Numbered from the stretch's first letter, positions 17,436 to 60,963 are shown. The stretch is 64,000 bases of DNA from an uncultured Candidatus Saccharibacteria bacterium (GCA_964565685.1 CAZMFR010000001.1:36376-100375), one strand, 5' to 3'. Notes: a model not told the origin generated them from the letters alone. Made by a program: numbers and translations.

Positions 17436-18281
17436 TCAAAACTCCCCTATCTTCGTCCTCTCTATCGAAAGCGCGAACGTCGCCGTGCCTGCTTCCCTGC
17501 CGATCCGCTCTGCCAAGCTGCGCATATAGGTGCCGCTTCCACACGACACGCGAAGCTTGATGACGAGAAAATTCTCTGCACCGTGCTCGCTTTCAAACTT
17601 CTTCCAACCTTCGATTATTTCCTTTTGACGAAAATCACCATTCACTTTTGAGACATTCTCGATCGCCCGTTCGGCAAGATCATTGCCACCGATAAAGTCA
17701 AGCTGTTTTTTAGCGCGATTTCTTCCTTTATCCATTCCTTTTCTTGCCAATTCTTCTATTGAATAAATCTCTACCTCTTTCGTCGGCATCTCGTCAGGCA
17801 ATTCACCGCTTCTAGCAAGGTCATGCAAATGACGCTTTTTACCGAGATGGAATCTTTCCGATATTTTATCTTGTACTTGTCCAAGATCAGATCTTGGACA
17901 GACAGTTTTCGACGAATACGCAGGATAGACCTGCGTGAACTTGCCGCAGAATTTTGTCCAAGGGTAGCCCTTGGATACAAGCCCTTCGGAATAGGTCATG
18001 GCATGGGTCTGCCGATCCACCTGTGTTATAAGCCCCAGCGCGTCGCCCGTATCCGTCCCGACGCCAAATAGCACCTCGATCTCGTATTCCTTGTCCAAAC
18101 CGAGATATTTTTCCTTTTCCTTACATTCTTCACCGATGAGCAATAAAAGCTTGCCGCTCGCCAACGGATCGAGCCGCCCGGCGTATGTCATCGGCACATT
18201 TACATCGATCCATTTTTCGCGCCGCGTCCTTTCAAGGCATTCAAGCGGCGTCTCGCCTACTGATTTATTAACCACAAGCAT
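17436..18281 (-). CDS. truB: tRNA pseudouridine(55) synthase TruB-like, carrying two in-frame palindromic-element insertions
   Basis: Catalytic-Asp region (YAGRLDPLASGKLLL) and the TDTGD segment are present. A FTQVYPAYSSK segment resembles the conserved PP.YSA.K element. Two 24-bp palindromes at 17878-17901 and 17955-17978 encode the inserted peptides CPRSDLGQ and KGYPWTK. Confidence 0.6.
   Translation of the reverse strand: MLVVNKSVGETPLECLERTRREKWIDVNVPMTYAGRLDPLASGKLLLLIGEECKEKEKYLGLDKEYEIEVLFGVGTDTGDALGLITQVDRQTHAMTYSEGLVSKGYPWTKFCGKFTQVYPAYSSKTVCPRSDLGQVQDKISERFHLGKKRHLHDLARSGELPDEMPTKEVEIYSIEELARKGMDKGRNRAKKQLDFIGGNDLAERAIENVSKVNGDFRQKEIIEGWKKFESEHGAENFLVIKLRVSCGSGTYMRSLAERIGREAGTATFALSIERTKIGEF
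17878..17901. repeat. palindromic hairpin element, copy inside truB: TGTCCAAGATCAGATCTTGGACAG
   Basis: Perfect inverted repeat GTCCAAGAT-CAG-ATCTTGGAC, in frame within the truB CDS. Confidence 0.8.
17955..17978. repeat. palindromic hairpin element, copy inside truB: TGTCCAAGGGTAGCCCTTGGATAC
   Basis: Inverted repeat CCAAGGG-TAG-CCCTTGG, in frame within the truB CDS. Confidence 0.8.
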
Positions 18282-18326
18282 ATTGAAAATTCAAGCGCCG
18301 TCGATTTTTTATTTAAATCTTTGCCG

Positions 18327-19292
18327 TTATTTCACTTCCGTCCTCCACTCCTTGTATTCTCTGCTCGTGCCTTTTTGCGCAGCGAGATATTTTTCAGCTA
18401 TATCCGAGACAAAAGAATTCTTTTTCCCGGCGCCATTTTTTCCGGCTCTATCATTGCCATTTCCGACAGGTCTCTTGTCTATCGAGAGTATCGGCACGAT
18501 GCGCGCTGACGAGCCGCAAATAAACGCCTCATCGGCTATGTAAAGCTCGGTGCGATCCACCTGGCGCTCTTCAATCTCGATCCCGAGATCTTTGGCTATC
18601 GCGATGATGCTGTTGCGAGTGATGCCTTCCAGAATATCTGACGAAACAGAAGGTGTAATCAGTTTGCCATTGCGCGCGAGAAAAAGATTCGCCACCGTGC
18701 CTTCGGTGACATGACCGGAGTGGTCGAGGGCGATGGCATCGTCATAGCCGTTCTGCAAGGCCTCATTTTTCATCAAACAGTTGCTGACGTATGCTCCGTT
18801 GACCTTTGCGCGATTAGGAACTGAATCATCTGGATTGTGCCGCCATGACGACACGCAGACGTTGATGCCTTTTGGATCGAGTATCTTTCCGAGCGGATAG
18901 ACGAAAGCGCTCAGAGAAACCGGCAAGCCGGTGATCTTTGTGCCGGCGATGACGGCATCGATAAAAACAGAGACACGGACCAGAGCGTCTTCCTGGATCT
19001 TGTTTTTACGCACGAGCTCCAGCATGGTCTTCTCGAACTTTTCGTACGGCCATTTTTTTTCGAACGAATCGAAACCCATTATTTTGGCCGAATTGACGAG
19101 CCGATTGTAATGATCGAGGAGGCGAAAAGCATACAGCTTGCCATCTGTTTCGTTCCAATTTAGGCTAAAAACCGTGTAAACAGCGAGACCGTACAAGACC
19201 GGCGATGAAGCGATGCTAAGGTTTGCTTCCTTGAACGGCACAAATGAATCGCGCATGAATGAGATACCGTTCTCATAGTTGAATTTGCTCAT
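18327..19292 (-). CDS. ilvE: class IV (branched-chain / D-amino-acid) aminotransferase
   Basis: 321 aa. Contains the EGTVANLFLARNGKLITP motif (E..x..N-hydrophobic-F) typical of the BCAT fold and a conserved Lys region. Confidence 0.7.
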   Translation of the reverse strand: MSKFNYENGISFMRDSFVPFKEANLSIASSPVLYGLAVYTVFSLNWNETDGKLYAFRLLDHYNRLVNSAKIMGFDSFEKKWPYEKFEKTMLELVRKNKIQEDALVRVSVFIDAVIAGTKITGLPVSLSAFVYPLGKILDPKGINVCVSSWRHNPDDSVPNRAKVNGAYVSNCLMKNEALQNGYDDAIALDHSGHVTEGTVANLFLARNGKLITPSVSSDILEGITRNSIIAIAKDLGIEIEERQVDRTELYIADEAFICGSSARIVPILSIDKRPVGNGNDRAGKNGAGKKNSFVSDIAEKYLAAQKGTSREYKEWRTEVK

Positions 19293-19321
19293 AAAAAATA
19301 GTGTAGCACCTTTTCAACTAT

Positions 19322-19350
19322 AAAAAAAGCTGCCCCGCGAACAGGCAGCT
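19322..19350 (-). terminator. terminator-like hairpin
   Basis: AGCTGCC-CCGCGAACA-GGCAGCT preceded by AAAAAAA on the plus strand, which reads as a T-run on the minus strand. Confidence 0.4.
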
Positions 19351-19417
19351 TGTGCAAACTATTTTAAAGTAAAGAAAATTATGTGCTATACTTTTTCAAG
19401 AAAAAGAAAGGAAAATT

Positions 19418-19666
19418 ATGACAGAAAATGAGTTTGTCAGGACGTGTTGTGTTCCTGGTTGTGGCAGAAAGATCACCAACTGCAGCGGATTCGTCGTCGG
19501 AAGAGACATCCTTGCGGCGATGCAAGGAAAAACCAAGGAAGTGCCGCGCGAACTTTGTGGGCGTTGCGGTGTTCTTGCGCTCTTTATGCCTCAACTATTC
19601 TACGCAATCTTCGATCTTCATGACCAAATAAAATGCCTGAAACAACTCCAACCGGCCTCCTCGTGA
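19418..19666 (+). CDS. small Cys-rich (zinc-ribbon-like) protein, hypothetical
   Basis: 82 aa with CCVPGC...C and CGRCG. A clean terminator hairpin follows at 19654-19679. Low confidence. Confidence 0.3.
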   Translation: MTENEFVRTCCVPGCGRKITNCSGFVVGRDILAAMQGKTKEVPRELCGRCGVLALFMPQLFYAIFDLHDQIKCLKQLQPASS

Positions 19667-19679
19667 GGCCGTCTTTTTT
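19654..19679 (+). terminator. rho-independent terminator
   Basis: GGCCTC-CTCGT-GAGGCC followed by GTCTTTTTTA. Confidence 0.55.
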
Positions 19680-19734
19680 ATCCAACAAAAGGTGACAGCT
19701 TGGTAAAATCGTGGTTTCTTGCTACAATATCCAC

Positions 19735-20961: not shown

Positions 20962-20997
20962 AAAGCACGCCAACAACTGAACCACATCACAAATCCA

Positions 20998-21026
20998 TTG
21001 CGCACTGCAAAGCGCAGGGGTTTTTG
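20998..21026 (+). terminator. terminator-like hairpin at a convergent junction
   Basis: TTGCGCA-CTGCAAA-GCGCAGGGGTTTTTG. Confidence 0.45.
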
Positions 21027-21046
21027 TTGCCTGAAATTCAGGACGC

Positions 21047-22621: not shown

Positions 22622-22685
22622 AGCACGTCATTATTATATCACGTCTTTCTTGCCCCATTGCGACATCTCGCTTACAATATATTCC

Positions 22686-24200: not shown

Positions 24201-24203
24201 TTC

Positions 24204-24225
24204 GTACAAGGGCTTCCCTTGAACT
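24204..24225. repeat. palindromic hairpin element (degenerate copy): GTACAAGGGCTTCCCTTGAAC
   Basis: Inverted repeat CAAGGG-CTT-CCCTTG. Intergenic, between the convergent dsbA-like and helicase genes. Confidence 0.7.
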
Positions 24226-24230: not shown

Positions 24231-24252
24231 TGTACAAGGTAGCACCTTGTAC
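24231..24252. repeat. palindromic hairpin element: TGTACAAGGTAGCACCTTGTAC
   Basis: Perfect 10-bp arms with a 3-nt centre, followed by TTTTTTA at 24266-24271. Intergenic. Confidence 0.85.
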
Positions 24253-24271: not shown

Positions 24272-27200
24272 TTAGTCGAAGCTTACTTTGGCCAATCCGC
24301 ACCATTCGCAATCTGGATCATCGCATCTGCTTGACACAAGCCCACCGGACCAGACGCTGTCGATGACGCTTTGGATCTGCTCTTTTACTTTTTCTATATC
24401 CTCATGAGCTATCGGCAAGGAAACGATCGGACAGCGGCCTTTTTTATCCGGCGAGATGAAGACGAGCGCAGGCGTGATCTTTTTACCCCTCCAGCGCGGC
24501 TCGTCGTCTAGCAATATGCGATAGAACACGAGCTGACGAAAATAATCGCCGGTTGAATTTTTCGTCTCCCCTTTTATCTCGTTCACCGACATACCCTCGC
24601 GCGTTTTATAGTCAAAAACCTGGATCTCGTTTCCTGCATCGATGATCGCATCTAGCTTGCCGTGGAGCGGAATCTCGACTAGATCGAGGGATACCATCGT
24701 TGTCCGAGGGCTTCCATTTTGTCCAAGGGTAGCCCTTGGAGTTGTATCAAAAACCGTCTTGACCCATCTTTCGGTAAATATGGCCGCCTGCCGGCCGACA
24801 GCAAAATGCGACTCGAGGGCTTTTGCAACAGCCGGCGCGTCCTCGAACAGGTCTTTCTTGACCGATTCTTTTTCCTCCGCGGCAAGAAAAGACGTATCCA
24901 GATATTCCGCCGCTTTTTCCAAGATGACATCTTGGATATGCGATGCGGTCCGATCGCCTTCTTTCCAAATCGAAGAAATCGCATAATGCATGGCCGTGCC
25001 CTTTTCAGCCGCCGGCGAAGGCGCTTGCGGCAGTTTTAGAATGCTCAAATAAAGGAATTTATTCGGACATTCGAGAAAATGGTTCAAGGCCGTGACAGAA
25101 AGGCCGTTTTCAAGGAGAACCTGTTTGGCGATGGCAGTCATCTTGTTCGAGATCGGATCTCGAACTTTGATTTGTCCAAGGTCCGATCTTGGCAATTCCG
25201 CTTCAAACCTCGGCAAAGACGCCGCCGCGACGCTTTTTGGATCGAGCTCGGCGATAAATCGAAGCGGCGTCAGAGATTTGCCGTCGCTTTCCTCTAGAGC
25301 GGTCAGAATGACCGCATGCTTCTTGGCACGAGTCAGGGCGACGTAGAATAATCGCCGCGTATCGCGAATATCGTTGCCGCTCGCGCTCTTTTCTGGCAAA
25401 ACAAAAGATGCGCCTCGTGTCCGGCCGATCCACGCTTCTTCGGTGGCGTACGGCATGAAAACATAGTCGAATTCTAGCCCTTTAGAACCATGAGCCGTCA
25501 TAGCCGAGATCGACAAGTCTGGCGCACCGACGGATACCTTCACTGTCTTTGACTCGGCCGATTGGCGATACACGAGCATTGCCTTTATCAGGTCGAGCGG
25601 GCTCTGTATATTCCCTTCTCGCGCGAGCGATTCGGCAAGAGCAATGATGCCGCGCCACACATGAATAGCCGCCGGATCGCGACTGGCGATAGTAGAGAAT
25701 CCGGATGACTCGGCGGCGTGTATTAGAAAGGCGACAGCGCTGTCTTCTTGCATCTTTCTTTGCAAGCGGACGAGTGACGGAATTTTGTTTATCCAAGGGC
25801 TACCCTTGGACTGATTTTCCAAGGGTAGCCCTTGGAACTGACCGCTTCTCAAAGACTTTATCAGGGGAATCGCTTCGTCGATCGAGATTCCCCACATTCC
25901 AGCCGCAATCGTCTTTGCAAGGCAATCCGTCCGCGTGTAGTCAGCCAGAAACTCCATCAGATCAAAAAATAGCGCCCCGACGGAATGATGGAATATATCG
26001 ACACTTCTCTCCGATGAAACCGGTATATGATTCGATTCGAGGAGCCGGATGATGCGCTCTAGATCGCGATTGCGGCGAGTGATGACGGCGACAGTGGCTG
26101 TTGGCTCCTCTTTTAAGATCGTTTCGAGCCCAACAACTAGATATCTTTCGATAGCCGAGACGTTCTCACCAGTGACTACATCGAGCTTGCGCAGTCCTTC
26201 TCCATCTTTCCTTTTTTCTTCCTGTCTGTCGGCAGGCATGGCTTTGCTTCTCTGCTTGCCTTTATCGCCCGCTGTAAGTCTAACCCTCAAATCCTTGTGC
26301 TCGTCGCCTTCATAATTGTTCTCTATCATGGCAAAGCTGGCATCTAGAATGCCTTGATGCGATCGATAATTCGTATCGAGCGATATGACCTGCATGGTCG
26401 GCCAACGCTTTTGCAAGGTCAAGAAATTTTCGACAGAAGCGCCCTGGAACCGATAGATCGCCTGTTTTTCATCTCCAACAATGAATATGTTCGGTGTTTC
26501 AAAGAATTCAGCGATAGTGGCGACGATGAAATTCTGGGCATCGTTCGTGTCCTGATGCTCGTCCACGAGAAGATATAGAAATCTCTCCTGGATAAGCCGT
26601 AAAAACAGCTCATCGTTGCGCAAGGCGACGAGAAGCTCGATGAGAAGATCATTGAAATCCATCTTCTTCTGCTCGCGCTTGTCCTTTTCATATTTTTCAT
26701 AAATTTGGGAAAAGAGGACGGTGCGGCCGCACTTCTCTATGCGTTCTTGCGCTTCTGCTTTCAGCTTGCCCTTCGTAATGCCGCGCGTCGAGATAGAATC
26801 ATCGTCTTTTTTGATCCTTTCGGTCTCTTTTTCAGCGAATTTGCGCACCATTTCCGGAGTTTGCGCTTCCCTCTTTGCATTATCTATAGCGCGCATAATA
26901 GCAGATATGTATGCATCCGGCTTGCCAGTCGGACGAAGCTCTCTAAATTCCGGCTTGGAGATTATCGAGCGGATCAGAGACTCCTGTTCGACATCGCTCA
27001 TATGCGCCATGCCATCGAGATGCAGGAAGTGATCTGGATACTCGGCGATCATCGCCGCGGCAAAGCTATGAAAAGTATGGATCGCGATCTCGTGCGCGCG
27101 ATTGCCGATTATTTCGCGAAGCTTTGCGCGCATGGCCTTGACACCAGCATCGGTGTACGTAATAGCCAAGATCCCAGACGGTGGCGTATCCGTCCTCTTC

Positions 27201-27349
27201 AAGATATTAGCGATACGCAAAGTCAATATTGTGGTCTTGCCAGTGCCAGGACCGGCTATGACCATTACGGGACCGTCGATGGCGTCGACGGCTTTTTTTT
27301 GCGCCGGATTTAGCGATTTGTATTTCTGGTCAAAAGTTTGCGTATTCAT
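24272..27349 (-). CDS. UvrD/PcrA-type superfamily-1 DNA helicase fused to a C-terminal PD-(D/E)xK (Cas4/AddB-like, Cys-cluster) nuclease domain
   Basis: N-terminus LNPAQKKAVDAIDGPVMVIAGPGTGKTT (Walker A). Helicase motifs run through roughly residue 700. The C-terminus has a QVFDYKT (D-x-K) nuclease motif and a CDDPDCEWCGLAK cysteine cluster. The gene contains at least 5 in-frame copies of the palindromic element. Confidence 0.75.
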   Translation of the reverse strand: MNTQTFDQKYKSLNPAQKKAVDAIDGPVMVIAGPGTGKTTILTLRIANILKRTDTPPSGILAITYTDAGVKAMRAKLREIIGNRAHEIAIHTFHSFAAAMIAEYPDHFLHLDGMAHMSDVEQESLIRSIISKPEFRELRPTGKPDAYISAIMRAIDNAKREAQTPEMVRKFAEKETERIKKDDDSISTRGITKGKLKAEAQERIEKCGRTVLFSQIYEKYEKDKREQKKMDFNDLLIELLVALRNDELFLRLIQERFLYLLVDEHQDTNDAQNFIVATIAEFFETPNIFIVGDEKQAIYRFQGASVENFLTLQKRWPTMQVISLDTNYRSHQGILDASFAMIENNYEGDEHKDLRVRLTAGDKGKQRSKAMPADRQEEKRKDGEGLRKLDVVTGENVSAIERYLVVGLETILKEEPTATVAVITRRNRDLERIIRLLESNHIPVSSERSVDIFHHSVGALFFDLMEFLADYTRTDCLAKTIAAGMWGISIDEAIPLIKSLRSGQFQGLPLENQSKGSPWINKIPSLVRLQRKMQEDSAVAFLIHAAESSGFSTIASRDPAAIHVWRGIIALAESLAREGNIQSPLDLIKAMLVYRQSAESKTVKVSVGAPDLSISAMTAHGSKGLEFDYVFMPYATEEAWIGRTRGASFVLPEKSASGNDIRDTRRLFYVALTRAKKHAVILTALEESDGKSLTPLRFIAELDPKSVAAASLPRFEAELPRSDLGQIKVRDPISNKMTAIAKQVLLENGLSVTALNHFLECPNKFLYLSILKLPQAPSPAAEKGTAMHYAISSIWKEGDRTASHIQDVILEKAAEYLDTSFLAAEEKESVKKDLFEDAPAVAKALESHFAVGRQAAIFTERWVKTVFDTTPRATLGQNGSPRTTMVSLDLVEIPLHGKLDAIIDAGNEIQVFDYKTREGMSVNEIKGETKNSTGDYFRQLVFYRILLDDEPRWRGKKITPALVFISPDKKGRCPIVSLPIAHEDIEKVKEQIQSVIDSVWSGGLVSSRCDDPDCEWCGLAKVSFD
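24720..24741. repeat. palindromic hairpin element inside the helicase CDS: TGTCCAAGGGTAGCCCTTGGAG
   Basis: Encodes TPRATLGQ in frame. An adjacent degenerate copy, GTCCGAGGGCTTCCATT, lies at 24702-24718. Confidence 0.8.
25173..25195. repeat. palindromic element variant inside the helicase CDS: TGTCCAAGGTCCGATCTTGGCAA
   Basis: CCAAG...CTTGG arms. The neighbouring perfect palindrome CGAGATCGGATCTCG lies at 25148-25162. Confidence 0.7.
25791..25839. repeat. two tandem palindromic elements in opposite centre orientation inside the helicase CDS
   Basis: ATCCAAGGGCTACCCTTGGACT, then 4 nt, then TTCCAAGGGTAGCCCTTGGAACT. Translated in frame as FQGLPLENQSKGSPW. Confidence 0.85.
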
Positions 27350-27737
27350 AAAAAGATAGTAGTATCATACCAGAAATTATGAGCATGATACTTACACTTA
27401 CAAAAAGCGACTGGAAAGAAGAAGTCCGATCGTCTGGCTTGCCAGAGAGAACGCGCGAGCTTCTCGCCTCGGCGCTCCATGCAAAAATGACAGGCAAACA
27501 ACGATTCTCCCCGCGCATATCCGATGAGGAGTTTGAAAACATGATATCACGCCAAGTGATATTCATACGGCTTGGATCTAGGGGATTTATAGTGACAAAA
27601 AGGCGTTGCAAAAATGGGCAATTGCTCGTTTTGCAAGAAGAGACTTGACCAACCACGGCGCGGAATCCTATTCTGCGCCTTTTTATATATTTGCCAATGC
27701 GACCTTTTGGTGGCACTATATGTCAATGACAGCGTAT

Positions 27738-28319
27738 ATGAAAAAGACTTCTATGAATAACTCACACGGCTTGCTCAAAAGAGCCGGCTTCACTCTCATC
27801 GAGCTTCTGGTCGTAATCTCCATCATCGGCCTTTTGTCGACCATAATCTTGGCGGCAGTGCAGGGTGCGAGAACAAAGGGAAAAGAAGCTGTAATAATTA
27901 GCGAGCTTGTACAATTCCGAAATCTATATGAAACAGCTTACTCAACATATGGAAATTATGGATCATTACAACCAAGCGCATTCAATACTTGCACAGCATA
28001 TAGTGGTAGCACAGGATATCTTTGTGCTGCAAATTCTATCAATGGTTGTTCCTATATATACGGAACGGGAGGAGATATAACCAATTCTTCATTTTCTCAA
28101 TCTGCTTTGACCTTATGTGATCAAATTGTCAATGATACAGGAGGATTATATATAGGTCTACCAGGACCAACCATTAATAATCAACAATATTCTTTGTGGG
28201 CATTATTGCCGTATCAAAACAAATATATGTGTTTTGGAAGTAGTAAAAATAATTCCTCAACCAGCTCGTCTCCAATTTCTGCTGGTAGCACATCACCAGG
28301 GTGTCCAGGAAATCCGTAA
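27738..28319 (+). CDS. type IV pilin-like protein
   Basis: MKKTSMNNSHGLLKRAGFTLIELLVVISIIGLLSTIILAAV is a class III signal peptide with the G-FTLIE motif. The mature protein is roughly 170 aa and Ser/Thr/Gly-rich. Confidence 0.7.
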   Translation: MKKTSMNNSHGLLKRAGFTLIELLVVISIIGLLSTIILAAVQGARTKGKEAVIISELVQFRNLYETAYSTYGNYGSLQPSAFNTCTAYSGSTGYLCAANSINGCSYIYGTGGDITNSSFSQSALTLCDQIVNDTGGLYIGLPGPTINNQQYSLWALLPYQNKYMCFGSSKNNSSTSSSPISAGSTSPGCPGNP

Positions 28320-28326: not shown

Positions 28327-28380
28327 AAAGGGTTCTTGGTCAGAACCCTTATACTGTTATTCTATTCTTATTTTATTTTT
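28327..28380. terminator. terminator-like hairpin with T-rich tail between convergent genes
   Basis: AAGGGTTC-TTGGTCA-GAACCCTT followed by an AT-rich run ending TTTTATTTTTT. Confidence 0.5.
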
Positions 28381-29218: not shown

Positions 29219-30481
29219 TCAATAGTTCTTCAACCTGTCTGCCTTTTCGTGCTGGCGTATCTTTTCATGGGCTTTGGCCTCGATCTGGCGGATACGCTCG
29301 CGGGTCACTTCGAATTCCTTGCCTACTTCTTCTAGGGTATGTTGCACGCCGTCCATCAGACCGCAACGCATTTCCAATATCTTGCGCTCCTTTTCGGACA
29401 GTTCGTTCAGAATCTCGCGCACCTGATCGGCTAATATGCGGCGGGAGCTTTCTTGATCCGGCGACAAGATCTTGTCGTCAGCGATGAAATCCCCCAAAGT
29501 AGACTTGCCATCGTCAGAATCGTCTCCAACGGGCATCTCGAGGGAACCGACCGGCTGATCTATTTTTTCGATCTGATAGATCTTGTCTACATCAATGCCC
29601 ATTTCGGTGGAGATCTCTTCTGGCAATGGGTCGCGGCCTAGTTCCTGAGTCAGACGGCGCACGACCTGTTTATATTTGGCGATAGTCTCTACCATATGGA
29701 CTGGCACACGGATAGTGCGGCTCTGATCGGCCAAGGCGCGAGTGATGGCCTGGCGGATCCACCATGTAGCATAGGTAGAGAATTTGTAGCCCTTTGTCCA
29801 GTCGAATTTATCGACTGCTTTGAACAAACCGAGGTTACCCTCTTGGATTAGGTCGAGCAAGGTCAAGTCAGCAGACCTGCCGACATATTTTTTTGCGATA
29901 GATACGACGAGTCGGAGGTTCGCTTTGGCCAGAAGTCCTTTGGCTTCGTTATCTCCGGCCGCTATCATACGAGCGAGCTCTTTTTCTCTGGCGGCGTTGA
30001 TCAATGGATATTGACCGATCTCGCGCAGATACATCTGTATCGAATCATAAGCGGAATCGTTGGAACGCGAACCATATGTATATCGCTTTGCAGTCGGAGC
30101 AGTCTCTTTTTCTATATTTAACAGCCCGCCGCCTTCTAGTATATCGACACCAGACGCCGCGAATTTGCTATAAAGATCCTCCAAAAACACTATATCGGTT
30201 TCGACAGTCGGAAATTCTTTGAGAATCTCGTCATAAGTGACGAATCCGCGCTCCCTGCCCTTGACCATCAGTTTGGCCGCTTTTACATCAAACGCTTTTT
30301 GTGTGTCTTTTTGCTTTTGGGACTGCTTCGTTTTTTTCGCTCCCTGCTTGCCGGCAGGCATAGTTTTGTTTGTATCCTTCGGTTTTGCCGCCGAGGCCGG
30401 TTTCTTCTTTATTGAAATGGGCTTTTTTGAAGCCTTTGTTTTGCTCTTCTTATTTGATTTTTTTGACGTGCTTTTAGACAT
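29219..30481 (-). CDS. rpoD: RNA polymerase sigma-70 factor RpoD with lysine-rich N-terminal extension
   Basis: Region 2 ([40 protein letters not shown]), region 3 and region 4 ([23 protein letters not shown]) are all present. The N-terminal 70 aa is K-rich ([15 protein letters not shown]...). Confidence 0.9.
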
Positions 30482-31320: not shown

Positions 31321-31336
31321 AGCACTTTATCTCATG

Positions 31337-31365
31337 CCCCGCGCACCTTGCGCGGGGCTTTTTTG
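31337..31365 (+). terminator. rho-independent terminator
   Basis: CCCCGCGCA-CCT-TGCGCGGGG followed by CTTTTTTG. Confidence 0.6.
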
Positions 31366-33955: not shown

Positions 33956-35272
33956 TTATAATATGACCCCTCCTCCCAAACAAACTTCCCCGTCATACAC
34001 AACGAGTGACTGACCCGGCGTCAAAGCGTTCTGTGGTTTGTCGAATTTTATCTCGGCTGTTCCGGAGTCTTCTTTAATTGAAGTAAAAACAAGCGGCACG
34101 AGCGGCTGGCGATAACGAGTACGACCGGATTCCAGAGGTCCGACCTCTGGAATTTTAATCCAATTCGTCCTTTCGAGCATAACCATAGTTTTCGCCTCCG
34201 CCAAAAGTCCTTGTGGATCTTTGTTTGAAACAGTGATCGTGTTCTTCTCGACATCCTTTGCAACAATGAAATACGGCTCGTCATGCGGCGTCTTCTTATC
34301 TATGACAAAACCGTGACGCTCGCCGATAGTCAGGAAAAAAGCGCCGTCGTGATGACCGATAGCTTTTCCTGCTTCATCGAGGACATCCCCATTTTTCGGC
34401 TCCATATAATGAGAGAGGAATTCTTTTATGTCGACTTTGCCGATGAAACAGAGGCCTTGGCTGTCTTTTTTGTCTGCATTCGGCAAATTGAATCTCTGTG
34501 CGAGCTTGCGCACGTCTGGCTTCTCTATGTCACCGATCGGAAAGAGGATGTGCGGCAGTTGTTCTCGGCGGATGTTCCAGAGGAAGTATGATTGGTCTTT
34601 GTTCGGATCAGTGCCAGCAAGCAAGCAATAATCGGTCTCAGCACCAGATACATTCTTTCTCCGGACTATTCCCGGGTTTCCCAAGCCAAGTTCTCGCCCT
34701 GAACGCTCGCCCGGGAGCCATCCAAAAGAGGTATTTGGCGCTTCGCCTTGATTTTCGACTCGGCATTCTTGACTTTCGACTCGGCGCTTTCGACTTTCGA
34801 CTATCCTTGCATAATGCCCCGTCGCCACGAAATCAGCGCCCTGCCCCATCGCGAAATCATAGAATGCGCCAAATTTGACGCTCTTGTTGCACATAACATC
34901 CGGATTCGGCGTCCGACCAGCTCGATATTCGGCGATCATATAGTCGACGACATCGCGCTTGTATTCTTTTTCCAGATCCAAAGTCATAAAAGGAATGTCC
35001 AAAACTGCCGCTACACGCATGGCATCGAGACGATCCTGTCGCCAGTTGCAATCCATCCAATCCGGCTGCCAGACTTTTATAAAGACGCCAATGACATCGT
35101 AACCGTCACGCTTTAAAAGCGCAGCAGAAACAGAGCTATCTACGCCGCCCGACATGCCGACAAATACCCGTTTGTTTCGACTTCTATTGTTTTTTTTGTC
35201 TTGTATGGCATTTATAGACCTGTGTGGCTTTGACACTATAGGAGATAATGCCGAATTATATTGACCTTTCAT
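33956..35272 (-). CDS. mnmA: tRNA-specific 2-thiouridylase MnmA with an in-frame low-complexity insertion of roughly 55 aa
   Basis: PP-loop GMSGGVDSSV. TGHYAR and NKDQSYFLW motifs are present. Between them the gene carries a tandem TTTCGAC(TCGGC) repeat (34741-34800), not found in typical MnmA. Confidence 0.75.
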   Translation of the reverse strand: MKGQYNSALSPIVSKPHRSINAIQDKKNNRSRNKRVFVGMSGGVDSSVSAALLKRDGYDVIGVFIKVWQPDWMDCNWRQDRLDAMRVAAVLDIPFMTLDLEKEYKRDVVDYMIAEYRAGRTPNPDVMCNKSVKFGAFYDFAMGQGADFVATGHYARIVESRKRRVESQECRVENQGEAPNTSFGWLPGERSGRELGLGNPGIVRRKNVSGAETDYCLLAGTDPNKDQSYFLWNIRREQLPHILFPIGDIEKPDVRKLAQRFNLPNADKKDSQGLCFIGKVDIKEFLSHYMEPKNGDVLDEAGKAIGHHDGAFFLTIGERHGFVIDKKTPHDEPYFIVAKDVEKNTITVSNKDPQGLLAEAKTMVMLERTNWIKIPEVGPLESGRTRYRQPLVPLVFTSIKEDSGTAEIKFDKPQNALTPGQSLVVYDGEVCLGGGVIL

Positions 35273-35557: not shown

Positions 35558-35580
35558 TTGTACAAGGATAGCCCTTGTAC
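35558..35580. repeat. palindromic hairpin element: TTGTACAAGGATAGCCCTTGTAC
   Basis: Directly abuts and overlaps the mltG stop codon. At a convergent junction. Confidence 0.75.
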
Positions 35581-36521
35581 TACAGATACTTTGTCTCATT
35601 GGTCATCTGCTCGTCATATGTCTCGGCAAAATGTATGTTCCCTTTTGAATCAGACAAATAATACCAATATGTCGTGCTAGCCGGCGAGATTGAGTCCTCT
35701 ATCGCTGAAAGCCCGGGGTTACCGATAGGCGTCGGAGGCAAGCCGAGATTTTTATATGTATTGAATGGCGAAGTGGTCGCCAAGTCGTCAGAAGTCAATT
35801 TTGTACCGTCTTTATCCAGAGCAAAAGCTAGGGCGGCATCCACTTGGAGAGGCATCTTGTCGTCTAGACGCTTCCATAGAATGCCAGCGATGATACGGCG
35901 GTCATTAGAAGAGGTCGCTTCGCGCTCGAGAATCGAGGCCATGATGACGATGGACGATGTGGCACGGCCAGATTCCGAGATCTGATCTTGGACAGAAGAA
36001 ATCTTTTGATCAAAGAGCGTGCGCATAGCTTTCACCGCATCGTCTGGCGAAGTATCCATATTAAAGAAATACGTGTCCGGAAACAGATATCCTTCTGACG
36101 GATCTGCCAAAGTCATAAAAGTCGAAGTGGAAAAACCAGGAATATCTTTGCCGAGCAACGCTGAAATCTGCTGTACATCAAAACCCTCTGGGATGGTCAC
36201 TTTGATCGGGGTAAATCCATATTCTCCATTGACGAGCCGCCGTGCGACCTGTACGACTGATTCCTTCGAATCAAAAAGATAATCCCCTGCCTTGACCCCT
36301 CTCTCGCCTGAAAAAATTATCACAAAAGACTTGAATAGAGCTTCTGATCTTATCATATGATCATTATAGAGATTATCCGTGACTGCGGCGAGCGAAGAGT
36401 TCTGCTCGATGTGAAAAATCGTTCCGACAGGAAAAGTTAAAGAAGGAAACGCGGCAAAACCAAACATGGCAAGTAAAACGACTATGAAAAAAACACCGAT
36501 AGCCGACAGAAACTTTTTCAT
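35580..36521 (-). CDS. mltG: endolytic murein transglycosylase MltG (YceG family)
   Basis: N-terminal TM helix. Motifs IPEG, ASILEREA and GLPPTPIGNPG, plus a YWYYL C-terminal region. Confidence 0.75.
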   Translation of the reverse strand: MKKFLSAIGVFFIVVLLAMFGFAAFPSLTFPVGTIFHIEQNSSLAAVTDNLYNDHMIRSEALFKSFVIIFSGERGVKAGDYLFDSKESVVQVARRLVNGEYGFTPIKVTIPEGFDVQQISALLGKDIPGFSTSTFMTLADPSEGYLFPDTYFFNMDTSPDDAVKAMRTLFDQKISSVQDQISESGRATSSIVIMASILEREATSSNDRRIIAGILWKRLDDKMPLQVDAALAFALDKDGTKLTSDDLATTSPFNTYKNLGLPPTPIGNPGLSAIEDSISPASTTYWYYLSDSKGNIHFAETYDEQMTNETKYL

Positions 36522-38005
36522 ACTGGTATATTCGCTGGCGCTTCGCCTTTCTTTGACGGCACGCGAGTCAATGTCGGCGTAGCCGCGACCTGACCCGGGA
36601 AGTGATAGATGGTAGCGAGCGACTCAGAGCTCATTATCATGGGCTTCAGATGACCGATAATATGCGTATATGGCGGAAAGAAGTACGAACGGCGCTTGTA
36701 CATGTCGAGGGCTTGTTTTGAAAAATGCTCGGCCATTTTGCCGCTCCTGTCTTCCCATGGCAAGTCTATCCTCTCGAACCACAGGTCATCGCTCGTGCCG
36801 AGCCCGTTCATGTGCGGAGCGCTGTATTGTTTCCACATGCTCTGCATGGCGCCTGGATTCGCCTTGTTGAAATTCTCTTTTTTGGCGATGTACATAAGGC
36901 GGATGCCCACATCAAAGCCGAGCTTCGTAATATTGCGCTCGATGGCTGTGATGATATCTTCCTCGCCTTTCGTTATCCTAGGCATCTTTGAAAAACCAGT
37001 GTCAGCATCGGCCGCACCGGCAACATGTGTCTTTGGATCGCGCCTGTGCAATTTGTTCACCAACGCTTCGGCCTCTTTTTGTCTCTTGTCGTGCTTTTTA
37101 AAGAAGTGACCTGGCTCGACATGATCGCTCTTTTTATATGCACGGACTAATATCTGCACCCATGCTTGCTGATTGACCCCGATCGATCCCAAAAATTCAA
37201 TGACCGGCGCGATCGGATCGACCTTGAATTCTTCCTTTGGATCCTTGTCTAGACCGTAATCCACATAAGTCATGAGCGGGTATGCGTCTTCTTTGCTGAA
37301 TTGAAGGTCAGCGGCCCAGATCTCCATTGTCTTTGGATCGTAATGGACAGATTGGGCGTAATCTGTCGCATCATGGACTTCTATGCCCGGGAATTGGGCA
37401 TACAGCGATGTCGAGATAAAATTCTTCAGAGATTTTCTCATCCAAATGAAGAAATGTATCTGCCCTTCTATCGAGACGAGCTCGAGAGAAAACCAAGCTC
37501 TGGTCTTTCCGTACCAATATTTGCCGAACCAGCCGCCTTCGCCCGCAGTCTGATGGAGCGCGGTCAGGAACATCTCCATGGCCACTGGGGACTTCACCGT
37601 CTCTTTTGGCAATCTGACTTCGACTATAGAATATTCTTGCTTTGAAAGCGTTTTGGCTCTCGTGTAATTAATCCAAAGATCGATGAAAATAAAGAAAAGA
37701 GCGATCATCACCGCCAAAGGAGACAGAGCGATCAAGATGTCAAAGAATACATTAAAATTTGATGAGCTTACAAATATATTGACGAATAACCAGAAACAAA
37801 AGACGACGATAAAACCGGAAATGCTCCAAAAAAGATATTCCTTGTGCTCTTTTAGCTTGTGGTTGACAAAAAAATAACGGTAGATATTAAAGAAAAAAAC
37901 AACGACAGAGACAGCGATCAAGATGTACATGATCACATGATATTGCGTTATAGATAGACCTATCTGGCTCATAGAATAAGTATAACAATTAAAGGCAAAA
38001 GGCAA
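36518..38005 (-). CDS. hypothetical membrane protein (4 N-terminal TM helices plus roughly 350-aa soluble domain)
   Basis: 495-aa ORF that overlaps mltG by 4 bp. No recognisable motif. Confidence 0.5.
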   Translation of the reverse strand: MPFAFNCYTYSMSQIGLSITQYHVIMYILIAVSVVVFFFNIYRYFFVNHKLKEHKEYLFWSISGFIVVFCFWLFVNIFVSSSNFNVFFDILIALSPLAVMIALFFIFIDLWINYTRAKTLSKQEYSIVEVRLPKETVKSPVAMEMFLTALHQTAGEGGWFGKYWYGKTRAWFSLELVSIEGQIHFFIWMRKSLKNFISTSLYAQFPGIEVHDATDYAQSVHYDPKTMEIWAADLQFSKEDAYPLMTYVDYGLDKDPKEEFKVDPIAPVIEFLGSIGVNQQAWVQILVRAYKKSDHVEPGHFFKKHDKRQKEAEALVNKLHRRDPKTHVAGAADADTGFSKMPRITKGEEDIITAIERNITKLGFDVGIRLMYIAKKENFNKANPGAMQSMWKQYSAPHMNGLGTSDDLWFERIDLPWEDRSGKMAEHFSKQALDMYKRRSYFFPPYTHIIGHLKPMIMSSESLATIYHFPGQVAATPTLTRVPSKKGEAPANIPV

Positions 38006-38017: not shown

Positions 38018-38042
38018 TTGTACAAGGGTAGCCCTATGTATA
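38018..38042. repeat. palindromic hairpin element (imperfect): TTGTACAAGGGTAGCCCTATGTATA
   Basis: Intergenic. Immediately preceded by an (AAAGGCA)x3 tandem repeat at 37991-38016. Confidence 0.7.
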
Positions 38043-44460: not shown

Positions 44461-44483
44461 TGTACGAGGTGGCACCTTGTACA
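44461..44483. repeat. palindromic hairpin element: TGTACGAGGTGGCACCTTGTACA
   Basis: Intergenic, just downstream of the groEL stop. Confidence 0.75.
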
Positions 44484-51830: not shown

Positions 51831-51855
51831 GGTACAAGGTAGCACCTTGTACAAA
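51831..51855. repeat. palindromic hairpin element: GGTACAAGGTAGCACCTTGTACAAA
   Basis: Intergenic, in a divergent promoter region. Confidence 0.8.
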
Positions 51856-55468: not shown

Positions 55469-55579
55469 TAGACGCTCTTTCCATGCTGAATTTTGCCAAC
55501 TCTAATAAAGATTGCATCGGTAAAATAGTCCTAAATATAGCGGTTATACAGCTCTATTCTTGTATGGCCTGCCTGTGCA

Positions 55580-55606: not shown

Positions 55607-55642
55607 AAAGAGCTATGCTTGTGTGCGATCTATATCGACACG

Positions 55643-57100: not shown

Positions 57101-57102
57101 GA

Positions 57103-57822: not shown

Positions 57823-57857
57823 TGTTTTTCTTGAAAAAATTAAGCTTGCTAAGTCGT

Positions 57858-58868
57858 CTAGAGATTATATATTTCCTTTGCCGTTTTCACAATCTTTTCA
57901 ATTGCCTCTGGAAGTGGCATAGTGAGCGTCGCCCCAGCTGCCGCCCTGTGCCCGCCGCCGCCGAGAGCCACTGCAAGTTTTGATAAATCGTATTTTTCTG
58001 CATCGCGAGTCGAAAAGCTGATTTTTACATTATCATCTTTGTTCTCTATGCAACAGGCGCAGACTTCCCAACCCACAACAGACTTCAATAGATTGACCGC
58101 CCAGCGTGTTCCGCTATCAAGATCGATGATTCCATTTTTCTTCAAATCTTCGCTCGAAACCGATGCAATGGCCATAGATCCGTTTAAAAATGTCTTGATG
58201 TTCGAAAGAACAAGCCCCAAGGAAATCAGTTCTTCCGGTTTTCTGCAGTTTTCCATCGTCGCGATGAGCTTTGGAAAAGTAGGATATGATTTTGCAAGCT
58301 CACTGGCGACGAACAAGACATTGGGGGTCACGCTTTCGTATCTAAAGCCACCAGTATCAGTATAAGCACCGATGAATAAATCTCCAGCCATATCAGACGT
58401 AATTTTGATTTTCCAAACTTTGAAAAGCTCAAAAAGTATAAGGGCTGTCGCTGGATAGCTTGAATCTACGAGATTAACAGCCGTTCCAAAGCTGGCATTG
58501 CTTATGTGATGGTCGATAACTATTGTCGGCAATGAAGCGGGGATATTCATTTTTCCCAAATGTGACACCCTATCCAAACTGCCTGTATCTTGAATTATGA
58601 ATAGATCAAACTCCTCCAGATCGACTTCGAAAAAATTCTTCGGCACGATCGAGTCTGCGCCGGGAAAATGCATGAAGGCCTGCGGGATCTCGCTGTCGCC
58701 GCGGATGACAGTGGCTTTCTTGCCCATTTGTTCGATGGCGAACTTCATAGCCAGGGCCGAGCCGACAGAATCAGGGTCAGGAGAAGGATGACAATGCAAA
58801 AGAACGCTTTTTGAGCCCTTGATCGCCTTGAGGATTTTTGGTGCGGCTTCTTTGACAATTCTGGTCAT
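57858..58868 (-). CDS. nrnA: DHH/DHHA1-family phosphoesterase (NrnA-like nanoRNase / pAp phosphatase)
   Basis: HCHPSPDPDSVGSA, IVIDHH and GGGGHRAAAG motifs. The start is at the internal ATG; the upstream part of the ORF covers a palindromic element. Confidence 0.7.
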   Translation of the reverse strand: MTRIVKEAAPKILKAIKGSKSVLLHCHPSPDPDSVGSALAMKFAIEQMGKKATVIRGDSEIPQAFMHFPGADSIVPKNFFEVDLEEFDLFIIQDTGSLDRVSHLGKMNIPASLPTIVIDHHISNASFGTAVNLVDSSYPATALILFELFKVWKIKITSDMAGDLFIGAYTDTGGFRYESVTPNVLFVASELAKSYPTFPKLIATMENCRKPEELISLGLVLSNIKTFLNGSMAIASVSSEDLKKNGIIDLDSGTRWAVNLLKSVVGWEVCACCIENKDDNVKISFSTRDAEKYDLSKLAVALGGGGHRAAAGATLTMPLPEAIEKIVKTAKEIYNL

Positions 58869-58899
58869 GGAGATATTAAAGCACAATATCGCAAGTTTT

Positions 58900-58923
58900 A
58901 GTACAAGGGCTACCCTTGGACAA
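58900..58923. repeat. palindromic hairpin element: AGTACAAGGGCTACCCTTGGACAA
   Basis: Intergenic, upstream of nrnA. Confidence 0.8.
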
Positions 58924-58959
58924 TAAAAACGCGGCTTCAATGGAAACCGCGTCGTGAAC

Positions 58960-59847
58960 TTAAAAGCGCTTGCTGAAAGAGAACCTCCACAAAGCACTGC
59001 CGTCGAACACATAGCCGAACGACAACGACTCGTCGAGTGCGAATATCCTGTCTATGCTCGCCGATGCCCTCGAATCAGATCTCGATCCGTTCAGATGTAT
59101 AGGATCTATAGAGAAGCCGCCGACGATCTGCCATGAAGAGGTCAAGGGGATTATCGTTTCCTCCTCGACGAGCATCGAATCCGATGGAACATAGCGCAAA
59201 CGAATGTCCTCGAACAATATCGGCTTGCCGGAATGGTTTTTCCAGACCGAACTCTGATAGAGATACGGCCGTTCGTCTAGAAAATGCGGAGCGAATAGCA
59301 TGCTCTCATCCTCTCGTCTCGTTTGCCACCATGATATCTGCGAAGCGGTGGCCATAGGCGATATGGGATCCAGCTGTTCTTCGGCCGTATTTCCGACAGT
59401 GCCCGCAAACAGCCATGCGAACCAACCTTCCAATCCATCCCAGTTACGCCATTTTTCCACTACCTCCGAATGCGCTGCCATCTCGCGACCAGCGTTCAAA
59501 AACGAGCGTCTTATGACAGATTCTCCTTCATTGTTCCATTCGGATATGACTGAATATCCGTTATATTCGCCCCTTAATATCCAGTCCGGGTCCGACGACC
59601 AGCCGACACTGTCAAAGGCGGATACCGAGCCGGATTTTTGGATATATTCGAGATAAGTATCAGACAGACTGCCAGCCGTCTTTTGCCGCCCCAGTTCAAG
59701 ATCGAAGACCGGAGATGCAGACACTGTGGTGTTGGTATCTTGTTTGCCTGGTTGTGCCAAACAGACATTATTAGTGGGCTCTTCTCCATAAAGAGGAGAG
59801 CATGCGACCAGAGCAACGACGACACAAGCTTCTTTTTGTAGATCCAT
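58960..59847 (-). CDS. hypothetical secreted protein / lipoprotein-like
   Basis: N-terminal signal (VVVALVACSPL). 295 aa, W-rich, no motif. Confidence 0.45.
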   Translation of the reverse strand: MDLQKEACVVVALVACSPLYGEEPTNNVCLAQPGKQDTNTTVSASPVFDLELGRQKTAGSLSDTYLEYIQKSGSVSAFDSVGWSSDPDWILRGEYNGYSVISEWNNEGESVIRRSFLNAGREMAAHSEVVEKWRNWDGLEGWFAWLFAGTVGNTAEEQLDPISPMATASQISWWQTRREDESMLFAPHFLDERPYLYQSSVWKNHSGKPILFEDIRLRYVPSDSMLVEEETIIPLTSSWQIVGGFSIDPIHLNGSRSDSRASASIDRIFALDESLSFGYVFDGSALWRFSFSKRF

Positions 59848-59947
59848 AAGGCATCATATCCTTTCTCGTCTTTATTTGGTTTTTTCTAATGTAATGTGCT
59901 TTAAAAACTCTGGCAATGATACTCCTACTGCGGTTTTACACAAGTAA

Positions 59948-59972
59948 CAGTCCAAGGGCTACCCTTGGACTA
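59948..59972. repeat. palindromic hairpin element: CAGTCCAAGGGCTACCCTTGGACTA
   Basis: Intergenic. Confidence 0.8.
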
Positions 59973-60033
59973 TTGTAAGAAAAAACCCGCGACCTATAGA
60001 AGCGCGGGCTTTCCTCATAATTTGAATTCGAAC

Positions 60034-60831
60034 TTACTGCGGAGTCGTGGAAGCGAATCTCTTGAATCCCTTACCATTCATTCCCCTTGCAAAATCATTC
60101 CCTTTTCCAAAAGCAACCTCCGGCATGATCGTGACCTTTGAAGCAAGGATTTCATTCGTCGAAGTCGTCGTACCTATTACCGCAACCAGGTTCCCGACAG
60201 CGATATCAGAGAATTCCGCTGTCGTGGTGCCCTCTCGAAACGCCGTTCCGGAATCTGTGTCGATCGTCAGCGTCGTAGTGCCAGTTTTTGTCCTTTCGTC
60301 CAGAGCGAACGATGCATCGCCAGTCACCGCAGACACTGATCCAAAAGCCGCCGGTCGAACAAAATTTTTGTCAAAAGCACGAGTCGAGGAAGCAAATGAA
60401 TGGCCGGTAGTGGAACCAATGCGGCCACCCTTTTCCCATGCCGGCGGGCCAGTAGTTTGAGGCAAAACCCCATCGAATATTATTTTTGCATTTATATTAG
60501 TGCCAGAAACGGTGCCTATAACAGCAATTTTGTCGTTGATTTGTATGCTAGAAGCCGTGGTCGTTGCGCCTGATCTCAGGATTTTGGAGTTGGAAGTGTT
60601 TACGGTATAAGTCGTGATAGCCGCGGTAGAACTGGCCTGCACTGTAATAGTCAAGTTGGTCGAATCGTCGACCGATGACACGATTCCGACGATTGGACGA
60701 GCAAATGAAGCATTGCCGCCATGACCAAAGGATCCTCTCGTCGTTGAAGCGGTCTGCGCGCAAGCCGCGCTCGCTACGACTAGAAACCCCACTATGGCGA
60801 CAGCGATTGGAATTTTATTGATGCTTTTCAT
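60034..60831 (-). CDS. hypothetical secreted Thr/Ser-rich protein with two internal repeats
   Basis: Signal peptide MKSINKIPIAVAIVGFLVVASAACA. Two roughly 45-aa repeats (…IAVIGTVSGTNINAKII… and …VAVIGTTTSTNEILASKVTI…). Confidence 0.45.
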   Translation of the reverse strand: MKSINKIPIAVAIVGFLVVASAACAQTASTTRGSFGHGGNASFARPIVGIVSSVDDSTNLTITVQASSTAAITTYTVNTSNSKILRSGATTTASSIQINDKIAVIGTVSGTNINAKIIFDGVLPQTTGPPAWEKGGRIGSTTGHSFASSTRAFDKNFVRPAAFGSVSAVTGDASFALDERTKTGTTTLTIDTDSGTAFREGTTTAEFSDIAVGNLVAVIGTTTSTNEILASKVTIMPEVAFGKGNDFARGMNGKGFKRFASTTPQ

Positions 60832-60938
60832 ATTTTTATTATTTATGGTTATCTGATAATAAAGACGGCTCTGTCTCATTTTTACGATTTTATTTTTATG
60901 AGAGGTATACGCGGTAGAGCTACGGTCGGGTGCAACCC

Positions 60939-60963
60939 GTGTACAAGGTAGCACCTTGTACTT
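60939..60963. repeat. palindromic hairpin element: GTGTACAAGGTAGCACCTTGTACTT
   Basis: Intergenic, in a divergent promoter region. Confidence 0.8.

Follow-up and report, generated by a model that had tools for sequence, protein, structure and literature searches.

The DNA considered here is a window of 64 kb from an uncultured bacterium, corresponding to approximately 117,247–181,246 of the 199,866-bp Joint Genome Institute (JGI) contig Ga0455670_0000397. On the basis of Pfam annotation and the names of homologues, the host is placed in the Patescibacteria, also called the Candidate Phyla Radiation (CPR), and is Paceibacteria-like. The window carries a dispersed family of short hairpins, which are found at gene ends and also in frame inside conserved genes. 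The stretch of the host genome that was read amounts to 84 kb (the window with 20 kb of flanks), out of a whole genome of probably about 1 Mb. Coordinates are those of the window, and copy counts and the expectations from shuffled sequence refer to its 64 kb. Loci retrieved from related genomes are given L-numbers, such as L037 or L110.

The hairpin unit is 21 nt long (27 nt in Saccharibacteria), and consists of two 8-nt arms, GT(A/C)CAAGG and CCTTG(T/G)AC, on either side of a 5-nt centre. The pattern GTMCAAGGKNNNMCCTTGKAC has five exact matches in the window, where shuffled sequences lead one to expect 0.00. When up to two mismatches are allowed there are 13 matches against 0.01 expected, a number that the shuffles never attained, which bears out the proposal in the initial annotation that the motif is present above chance. 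About six diverged relatives lie beyond the 13. There are two sub-types, type A (GTACAAGGT-AGC-ACCTTGTAC) and type B (GTCCAAGGG-TAG/CTA-CCCTTGGAC), which have the string GGTAGC in common in a slightly shifted register. The 8-nt arm GT[AC]CAAGG occurs 23 times on the two strands, and 19 of these occurrences are within hairpins. The remaining four solo arms are at the rate expected by chance (about 3.9), and the unit is therefore the palindrome and not a one-sided word.

A blind scan for perfect hairpins (stem of at least 8 bp, loop of 1–7 nt) recovered ten members of the family, with perfect stems of 8–11 bp and loops of 1–5 nt. Folded as single-stranded DNA, single copies give −10.5 to −12 kcal/mol, while the doublet at 25791–25837 folds into one 19-bp stem, a 45-nt doublet hairpin, at −23.3 kcal/mol; the z-scores of the copies and the doublet range from −6 to −11. 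All 16 positions listed in the initial annotation carry the sequences described there. Three of those listed are degenerate: 24702 is a half element, 25173 has three mismatches, and 38018 has a decayed right arm. Three diverged relatives had been overlooked, at 24918 (TCCAAGATGACATCTTGGA), 25145 (GTTCGAGATCGGATCTCGAAC) and, in mnmA, 34129 (ATTCCAGAGGTCCGACCTCTGGAAT).

The copies, all given without strand, are divided between genes and intergenic DNA, with 10 intergenic and 9–11 intragenic. Two are in truB (17436–18281, minus strand), which encodes 281 aa where most orthologues have 240–255 aa. One of them, an older variant (GTCCAAGATCAGATCTTGGAC) at 17879–17899, has a perfect 11-bp stem when its flanks are included, and is read in frame as CPRSDLGQ (aa 128–135). 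The other is a type B copy (GTCCAAGGGTAGCCCTTGGAT) at 17956–17976, read as VSKGYPWT (aa 102–109). The gene for a UvrD-type helicase with a PD-(D/E)XK nuclease domain (24272–27349, minus strand) hosts up to seven related segments. These are a truncated remnant (GTCCGAGGGCTTCC...) at 24702–24719, in frame as QNGSPRT; a type B copy (GTCCAAGGGTAGCCCTTGGAG) at 24721–24741, in frame as TPRATLGQ (aa 870–877), which is absent from L110 and L112 (82% identity); a perfect palindrome (TCCAAGATGACATCTTGGA) at 24918–24936, encoding IQDVILE; the diverged relative GTTCGAGATCGGATCTCGAAC at 25145–25165, with a 10-bp stem, in frame as VRDPISN; a decayed copy of the type with a TCCGA centre (GTCCAAGGTCCGATCTTGGCA) at 25174–25194, in frame as LPRSDLGQ; and, at 25791–25837, two type B copies 5 nt apart with inverted centres (CTA/TAG), which read in frame as FQGLPLE-NQ-SKGSPWI (aa 505–520) and together resemble the inverted doublets known as REPINs. 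Finally, the diverged relative ATTCCAGAGGTCCGACCTCTGGAAT, with a 12-bp stem, lies at 34129–34153 in mnmA (33956–35272, minus strand; 438 aa, compared to 372 aa in the L111 orthologue) and is read in frame as IPEVGPLES (aa 374–382). The statement that at least seven copies occur in coding sequence with the frame kept is thus correct, with two in truB and five of those originally listed in the helicase, or seven when the relatives are counted, apart from the one relative in mnmA.

Among the intergenic copies, GTACAAGGGCTTCCCTTGAAC at 24204–24224 lies 4 nt past the stop codon of a dsbA-like gene and is the first of a doublet, the second being a perfect type A copy (GTACAAGGTAGCACCTTGTAC) at 24232–24252, between the convergent dsbA-like and helicase genes. 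The same element as the latter comes after the dsbA stop in L110. The copy at 35560–35580 (GTACAAGGATAGCCCTTGTAC) abuts a yceG-family gene, the last base of the copy forming part of the stop codon, a decayed copy (GTACAAGGGTAGCCCTATGTA, right arm decayed) at 38020–38040 is downstream of a release-factor gene, and a variant of type A (GTACGAGGTGGCACCTTGTAC) at 44462–44482 is 5 nt downstream of the groEL stop. A copy with mixed arms (GTACAAGGGCTACCCTTGGAC) at 58901–58921 is 39 nt downstream of the stop of the open reading frame (ORF) at 58960–59847, and a type B copy (GTCCAAGGGCTACCCTTGGAC), with a 10-bp stem including flanks, is at 59950–59970. Two perfect type A copies are in divergent intergenic regions, at 51832–51852, upstream of a gene for a major facilitator superfamily transporter, and at 60941–60961. 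The copies listed at 58900 and 60939 are covered by upstream extensions of ORFs, beyond the gene starts that JGI assigned, and an intergenic reading suits them better. Overall, seven of the 10 intergenic copies are just 3′ of a stop codon, between unidirectional or convergent genes, and two are in divergent regions. Exact type A 21-mers are found at three unrelated loci. Inverted, REPIN-like doublets occur at 25791/25817 (inverted centres, 19-bp combined stem), 24204/24232 and 24702/24721.

Of the six reading frames of the unit, five are open; the closed one is GTC CAA GGG TAG or, in type A, GT ACA AGG TAG. As 21 nt is also exactly seven codons, a copy entering a tolerant surface loop would not disrupt the gene. 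No target-site duplication or flanking direct repeat was detected around the copies, nor was any conserved asymmetric flank or tetranucleotide found beside them, only a T-rich 5′ side. An Rfam scan of the window yielded no family that attained its gathering score. The claim that several copies are followed by T-runs proved weak: a T-rich stretch is more often 5′ of the hairpin, and most copies have no T-run on the 3′ side.

Comparison with orthologues shows that the in-frame segments are not conserved protein sequence, in agreement with the initial annotation. Distant TruB orthologues have SSKTV-xGK-QLH where the window has CPRSDLGQ plus extra residues, and at the second site they have unrelated, variable sequence. 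At the site of the 17879 copy, orthologues have either no insert or other hairpin variants in the same place, such as TTTCCGGAGATCGGATCTCCGGAAA in L108 and GTACAAGGGTAGCCCTTGTAC plus CCGAGGGCTACCCTCGG in L109. The arms at orthologous sites show compensatory changes, for example TGTCCAAGATC.GATCTTGGACA in the window against TTTCCGGAGATC.GATCTCCGGAAA in L108. An AlphaFold model of TruB has a mean predicted local distance difference test score (pLDDT) of 86, and the segments derived from the repeat fall within its two low-confidence stretches, 91–110 and 131–150, as would be expected if they are decorations of loops.

For the helicase, more than 20 orthologues of 65–69% identity lack the segments aa 505–520 and 870–883. 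Three closer relatives (L110, L111 and L112, 78–82% identity) were compared at the codon level. At site 1 there are two type B copies in the window, two copies with GTAC arms in L112, one type A copy in L110, and none in distant orthologues. At site 4 the window has gained 45 nt; the site is empty in L110 and L112, while L111 has a different palindrome, TGTACGAGATGTCATCTCGTACA. Where the window has the decayed copy 25174, L111 has a perfect GTACAAGGTCGGACCTTGTAC. Orthologous genes thus differ in the presence, number and variant of copies, and the length gains are of 21 nt or multiples. The peptide PRSDLG, seen both in TruB and in the helicase, is the translation of the variant with a TCCGA centre, which implies that the window also holds copies of an older generation. 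At the position of the window copy 25145, the helicase orthologue of L112 (about 2150–2195) has a 21-nt tandem duplication (CAAGATSAGATCTATGTAC, twice), which is also a seven-codon step.

The family extends across the CPR. An exact motif scan, using one genome per species, gave at least 107 loci, of which most are from CPR metagenome-assembled genomes (MAGs): Saccharibacteria/Saccharimonadales, Paceibacterota, Lloydbacteria, Yanofskybacteria and unclassified Patescibacteria, often with several loci per MAG. Among the matches listed, no genome outside the CPR contributes more than one, and chance alone should give about 140 matches in a collection this large; the nine matches on IMG/VR viral contigs are likewise single and at about the chance rate. 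Across CPR genomes the arms are constant and the 5-nt centre is genome-specific. It is GTAGC in the window genome, and examples elsewhere are TCSGA, TTSAA, GGGTTCCCC/GGGGAACCC, GGGCSGCCC and GGGCGACCC. Both orientations of the hairpin are found within one genome, and many CPR copies form the tip of longer perfect palindromes whose lower stems are unrelated. Of 105 exact copies in these loci, 25 sit at least 60 codons deep in long ORFs, with phases in the ratio 10:9:6. This intragenic share is depleted relative to coding density, yet far above that of classical repetitive extragenic palindromic (REP) sequences. Among the genes concerned are those for GatB, UvrC, PurL, PolA, DnaG, PheT (twice), ArgRS, TrmD, Tgt, Fpg, P-type ATPases and a beta-CASP RNase.

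In these relatives the hairpin is associated with a transposase gene. The loci had been picked by the motif alone, and all of their ORFs were screened. This screen identified a Y1 transposase candidate in L037, and tblastn with the L037 protein found homologues in ten more loci. A Y1_Tnp gene is therefore present in 11 of the at least 107 loci, mostly ones with several motif copies, and in most cases it is bracketed by two copies. The 5′ hairpin is 28–54 nt upstream of the start codon and the 3′ hairpin marks the ORF end, its position varying between 24 nt ahead of the stop and 23 nt beyond it. The centres of both flanking hairpins point the same way in several loci. Within the MAGs SMAG_U8123, ASO77, CAZVGL, CAZERF, MHLS, UBA6899 and REEB237, dispersed copies have the same arms and centre as those beside the transposase gene.

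In eight loci a third copy lies in frame inside the transposase ORF, at nt +156 to +177, where it encodes xVQGxPL(D/Y/E). Sites of this kind are at L026:3770-3790, L076:521-541, L066:3051-3071, L081 (oriented 6558), L017:3438-3458, L005:1244-1264 and L055:634-654, and further ones are in L037 (oriented 3092), L119–L122 and L132:6157. The arms and centre of this internal copy track each genome's own variant, and QGLPL is found at the same site in 20 transposase homologues among the 120 listed. The internal copy could be a master copy or an autoregulatory site.

The protein matches Pfam PF01797 (Y1_Tnp) with 31 bits, the cutoff being 23. Its sole NCBIfam match is NF047646, the REP-associated tyrosine transposase (RAYT), with E values of 1e-5 to 7e-11. 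It has the conserved motifs YHxYNRG, LMxNHFH (HUH), Y..YFN...R.G.L and YIHLNP, in which NHFH and Y..YFN are invariant. There are 513 homologues from CPR sources in the database, some of them named by JGI as ‘REP element-mobilizing transposase RayT’. The AlphaFold model has a pLDDT of 90, and its top Foldseek match in the PDB is 4er8 (E 9e-6), which is the E. coli RAYT (TnpA-REP) with its REP hairpin bound; the next matches are the TnpA proteins of IS608, ISDra2 and IS200. The CPR RAYTs are only about 33% identical to each other, and the hairpin arms are nonetheless conserved across CPR classes. One homologue, at L008:952-1476 in MAG REEB237, lacks both the HUH histidines (it has LLPNSYQ) and YHxYNRG. 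That MAG has many near-perfect copies of the repeat on at least nine contigs; its RAYT may have been inactivated, or a second one may be present elsewhere.

The layout was turned into a predictive pattern, CAAGG-N5-CCTTG followed by N170-200 and then CAAGGGCTACCCTTG, which stands for a 5′ hairpin and, at the expected distance, an internal copy with the window's type B centre in the sense frame. In metagenomes this pattern found four loci, each of them a RAYT gene whose hairpins are placed as predicted. Their in-ORF copy, ATCCAAGGGCTACCCTTGGAG, is identical to window copy 25791 at 20 of 21 positions. These loci, which are from other samples and are flanked by copies with GGGT(G/T/A)ACCC centres, belong to relatives and not to the window genome. 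A further RAYT, P0251, again has the three-hairpin layout, at one fixed locus in 11 assemblies, and belongs to another organism. The contigs of these 11 independent assemblies (L132–L137) stop at or beside the RAYT gene, and the REP/RAYT locus thus appears to be an assembly breakpoint in CPR metagenomes.

On the basis of these observations, we consider it probable that the hairpins are a REP-type family, made up of singlets and REPIN-like inverted doublets, that belongs to a CPR-wide clade of RAYTs of the Y1/HUH type. The system most probably works like, and is, a REP/RAYT system, that is, a known kind of element in a new phylum, and involves no new principle. This supports the suggestion in the initial annotation of a stem-loop element, similar to REP or miniature inverted-repeat transposable elements (MITEs) or to Rickettsia palindromic elements, that also inserts in frame into housekeeping genes. 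The over-representation of the 21-nt hairpin, its tie to a RAYT-type gene in relatives, and the gain, loss and replacement of copies between orthologues are direct observations. From the biochemistry of E. coli TnpA-REP and of IS200/IS605 we infer that the RAYT mobilises the repeat. By analogy, the RAYT would bind the hairpin in single-stranded DNA and cut beside it, and the hairpin would be moved or copied and reinserted without target-site duplication. New copies might land preferentially at or beside existing ones, and doublets, the helicase clusters and hot spots that persist would then follow. Copies landing elsewhere would presumably be removed by selection. Template switching from arm to arm may keep the stems perfect, and may account for the copy at 24918. 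As a secondary function, intergenic copies may work as hairpins in RNA, and may have gained roles at the RNA level.

Several observations weigh against this proposal. A Pfam search of about 50 window ORFs found no transposase or integrase, tblastn of 11 CPR RAYTs against the window and its 20 kb of flanks gave nothing below E 0.09, and there is no RAYT homologue on the window's contig among the 120 homologues listed. The transposase foreseen by the initial annotation, of RAYT or IS200 type, therefore adjoins or brackets the motif in related CPR genomes and was not found in the 84 kb of this one, for which the link rests on relatives. The score of the CPR proteins against NF047646 is 25–42 bits, below the equivalog cutoff of 80, and a sequence search of the PDB with the RAYT profile gave only non-significant matches to ISDra2. 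The hairpin is not accompanied by an unpaired GTAG or CGTC tag, and its ends (GTAC/GTCC) are base-paired; GTAG sits solely in the loop in the window genome, and other CPR genomes do not have it. Other samples provided four further assemblies of the same strain, which differ from the window by one base substitution in all, and insertion polymorphism at the strain level was not seen between them and the window. The copy at 24918 is not an insertion: its right arm consists of conserved ILE codons, its left arm has been altered to match, and there is no indel, and the palindrome was therefore made by substitution. To our knowledge, transposition of REPs by RAYTs has never been directly shown, even in E. 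coli.

The copy at 24918 bears directly on a different explanation, in which palindromes are made or perfected in place by template switching at quasi-palindromes, the family likeness is a convergent sequence preference, and no transposase is involved. The origin of that copy with no indel, the compensatory arm changes between the window and L108, and the longer palindromes with unrelated lower stems that many CPR copies cap all speak for it. It leaves unexplained, however, the identity of 21-mers at unrelated loci (the three exact type A copies), centres that are specific to a genome yet common to all the copies in it, and the tight association with the RAYT gene. As the origin of the family it is highly unlikely, and template switching is more likely to be a process of maintenance acting on REPs. 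We also considered that the motif is a DNA uptake sequence (DUS), a short word read by the competence or type IV pilus machinery and spread by biased uptake and recombination, like the DUS of Neisseria or the uptake signal sequence of Haemophilus. The window does encode type IV pilus proteins (PilB-like, 10512–11627; PilC-like, 9267–10343; pilins), copies resemble DUS in their frequency at gene ends and in genes for DNA repair, and molecular drive could also place each genome's own variant at orthologous sites. An uptake word should nevertheless be enriched as a single arm, which it is not; in addition, the motif brackets a transposase gene in relatives, and copies arise as 21-nt gains in length and not by substitution. 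This idea, which had been raised in the initial annotation, now seems extremely unlikely.

The position of most intergenic copies, just after stop codons, would also be explained if they were functional RNA or DNA hairpins (terminators, stabilisers of mRNA, or sites for host proteins), immobile and kept by selection at each site. Classical REPs do affect mRNA stability and bind host proteins (PMC3733652), and the conservation of the arms across CPR classes, despite the divergence of the RAYTs, points in the same direction. Against this, most copies lack a T-run after them, no Rfam family matches, and presence, number and variant vary even between orthologues of 80% identity. Furthermore, ORFs contain about half of the copies in the window and 24% of those in the CPR loci, with every one of the three phases represented, and a terminator at such a place would do harm. 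We therefore regard selection at each site as a very unlikely account of the family, although such a role may be a secondary, exapted use of some copies.

Other kinds of element were also rejected. Canonical intrinsic terminators do not agree with the lack of a T-run after most hairpins, and a CRISPR array does not agree with the irregular spacing and absence of spacers. PARCEL repeats are tandem units of 75 nt, and an octamer of the HIP1 type was also discarded. A MITE of a cut-and-paste transposon has terminal inverted repeats and a target-site duplication, whereas here there are no flanking direct repeats and the gains are of 21 nt or multiples.

The REP/RAYT assignment can be compared with what is described elsewhere. 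In the REP/REPIN-RAYT systems of Proteobacteria (E. coli, Pseudomonas, Stenotrophomonas) there are also hairpins of 20–40 nt in high copy number, singlets together with inverted doublets, and a Y1/HUH gene bracketed by the same repeat, and the best structural match, 4er8, comes from this group. Copies there are mostly just downstream of genes, and the intragenic ones are in the same gene classes (PMC3733652); intragenic REPs, most of them in genes of DNA repair and replication, have been reported in UvrD/REP helicases, recBCD, uvrA/B and truB in Proteobacteria and Rickettsia (Di Nocera et al., 2013, PMC3733652). The CPR element differs from the GTAG/CGTC-tagged super-families of REPs (Di Nocera et al., 2013) in having no unpaired tag, the outer GTAC/GTCC being within the stem. 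It differs from Proteobacterial REPs in general in that its stems are perfect or nearly so, its unit is exactly 21 nt, its arms are conserved across classes and are not species-specific, about a quarter of its copies are intragenic, and the RAYT ORF holds an in-frame copy; the RAYT itself, compared to those of Proteobacteria, scores below the NCBIfam equivalog cutoff.

Rickettsia palindromic elements similarly occur in frame in housekeeping genes, including truB, and are tolerated in surface loops, but are about 100–150 bp long (five times longer), are confined to Rickettsia and have no known cognate transposase, whereas the CPR element is 21 nt long and linked to a RAYT. The small dispersed repeats (SDR, 21–27 nt) of Nostoc and related cyanobacteria, reportedly described by Elhai and colleagues in 2008 (work cited in PMC3116915 and PMC4390886), are said to have been proposed to spread through an RNA intermediate. 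They are alike in size, in forming hairpins with compensatory changes, in nested or adjacent insertion and in the diversity of their contexts, but have no identified transposase and are limited to one cyanobacterial subgroup. The IS200/IS605 family (IS608, ISDra2) has a Y1/HUH transposase that reads hairpins at the ends of the element on one strand, and the flanking hairpins with the same centre orientation in several CPR loci recall the left and right ends of IS608. In the CPR, by contrast, hundreds of solo copies dispersed elsewhere are identical to the flanking hairpins, there is no tnpB alongside, and the one genome checked appears to have a single copy of the gene, at a fixed locus.

No description of such repeats in the CPR was found in the literature, in searches for palindromic or uptake sequences, for the motif strings and for RAYT/REPIN in the CPR. 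The analysis adds the Candidate Phyla Radiation to the groups with a REP/RAYT system. Some of the variation in length among CPR proteins such as TruB, UvrD-type helicase, PolA, UvrC, DnaG and tRNA enzymes, and some of their unusual additional segments, are due to the repeat, which also explains assembly breaks at some loci, and provides a compact motif that marks CPR DNA in metagenomes. Conserved arms despite such divergent RAYTs, and a REP inside the RAYT ORF, are both unusual, and the CPR could therefore be a useful comparative case for how RAYTs move REPs, a step that is still unproven. A further reading, possible but rather doubtful, is that the CPR pair is an old system, kept vertically throughout the phylum, whose seven-codon hairpin has become adapted to essential genes. 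If so, orthologous hot spots, including the fixed site within the RAYT, would be continually refilled with whichever variant the genome has at the time, the element would constantly supply new loop variants to the reduced proteome of the CPR, and the internal RAYT copy would be the master copy or autoregulatory site.

Short inserts of other families occur in the same lineage. The palindromic insert ATGCCTGCCGGCAGGCAGGG encodes TMPAG(R/K)QG, and is found in the window at 30347–30358, in a sigma-70 gene (29219–30481, aa 38–48), and in mnmA at L111:3614-3625; in L111 it lengthens MnmA by 21 nt (7 aa), and in the window it forms part of the 11 aa that the sigma factor has gained. A third family of perfect palindromes, AAATTAACAAGAWTCTTGTTAATTT, is found in topoisomerase and HisRS genes of relatives (L109:13549-13575, L109:8890-8910, L110:8832-8856) and is absent from the window. 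In bipA/typA of the window (13328–13348, aa 79–85) there is a 7-aa (21-nt) insertion, PSPSSGR, relative to two orthologues, which contains the palindrome CCGAGCTCGG. It seems that indels of seven codons are general in this lineage. In mnmA of the window, a 35-aa insertion (34661–34765, aa 170–204) splits the HUP domain in comparison with the L111 orthologue, and may consist of decayed repeats.

It is worth adding some features of the surrounding DNA. Perfect hairpins unrelated to the family are at 31336–31358, 61494–61515, 15286–15310 and 28328–28350 (for example GCCCCGCGCACCTTGCGCGGGGC and AAAAGACGGCAAGCCGTCTTTT); they sit at gene ends and resemble ordinary stems of the terminator type. The window encodes a TraG/VirD4-like coupling protein, a protein similar to type IV secretion system pilins, and type IV pilus genes (PilB-like, PilC-like and two prepilins), the set being located at 4058–6832, 36518–38005, 9267–11627, 2336–2845 and 27606–28319, and making up a DNA-uptake or secretion apparatus typical of the CPR. 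About 6.1 kb past the right end of the window, on the same contig (L116:18131-18910), is a gene with the Pfam domain REP_ORF2-G2P, a rolling-circle replication initiator. It stands among small unannotated ORFs, and this region may be an integrated small plasmid or phage.

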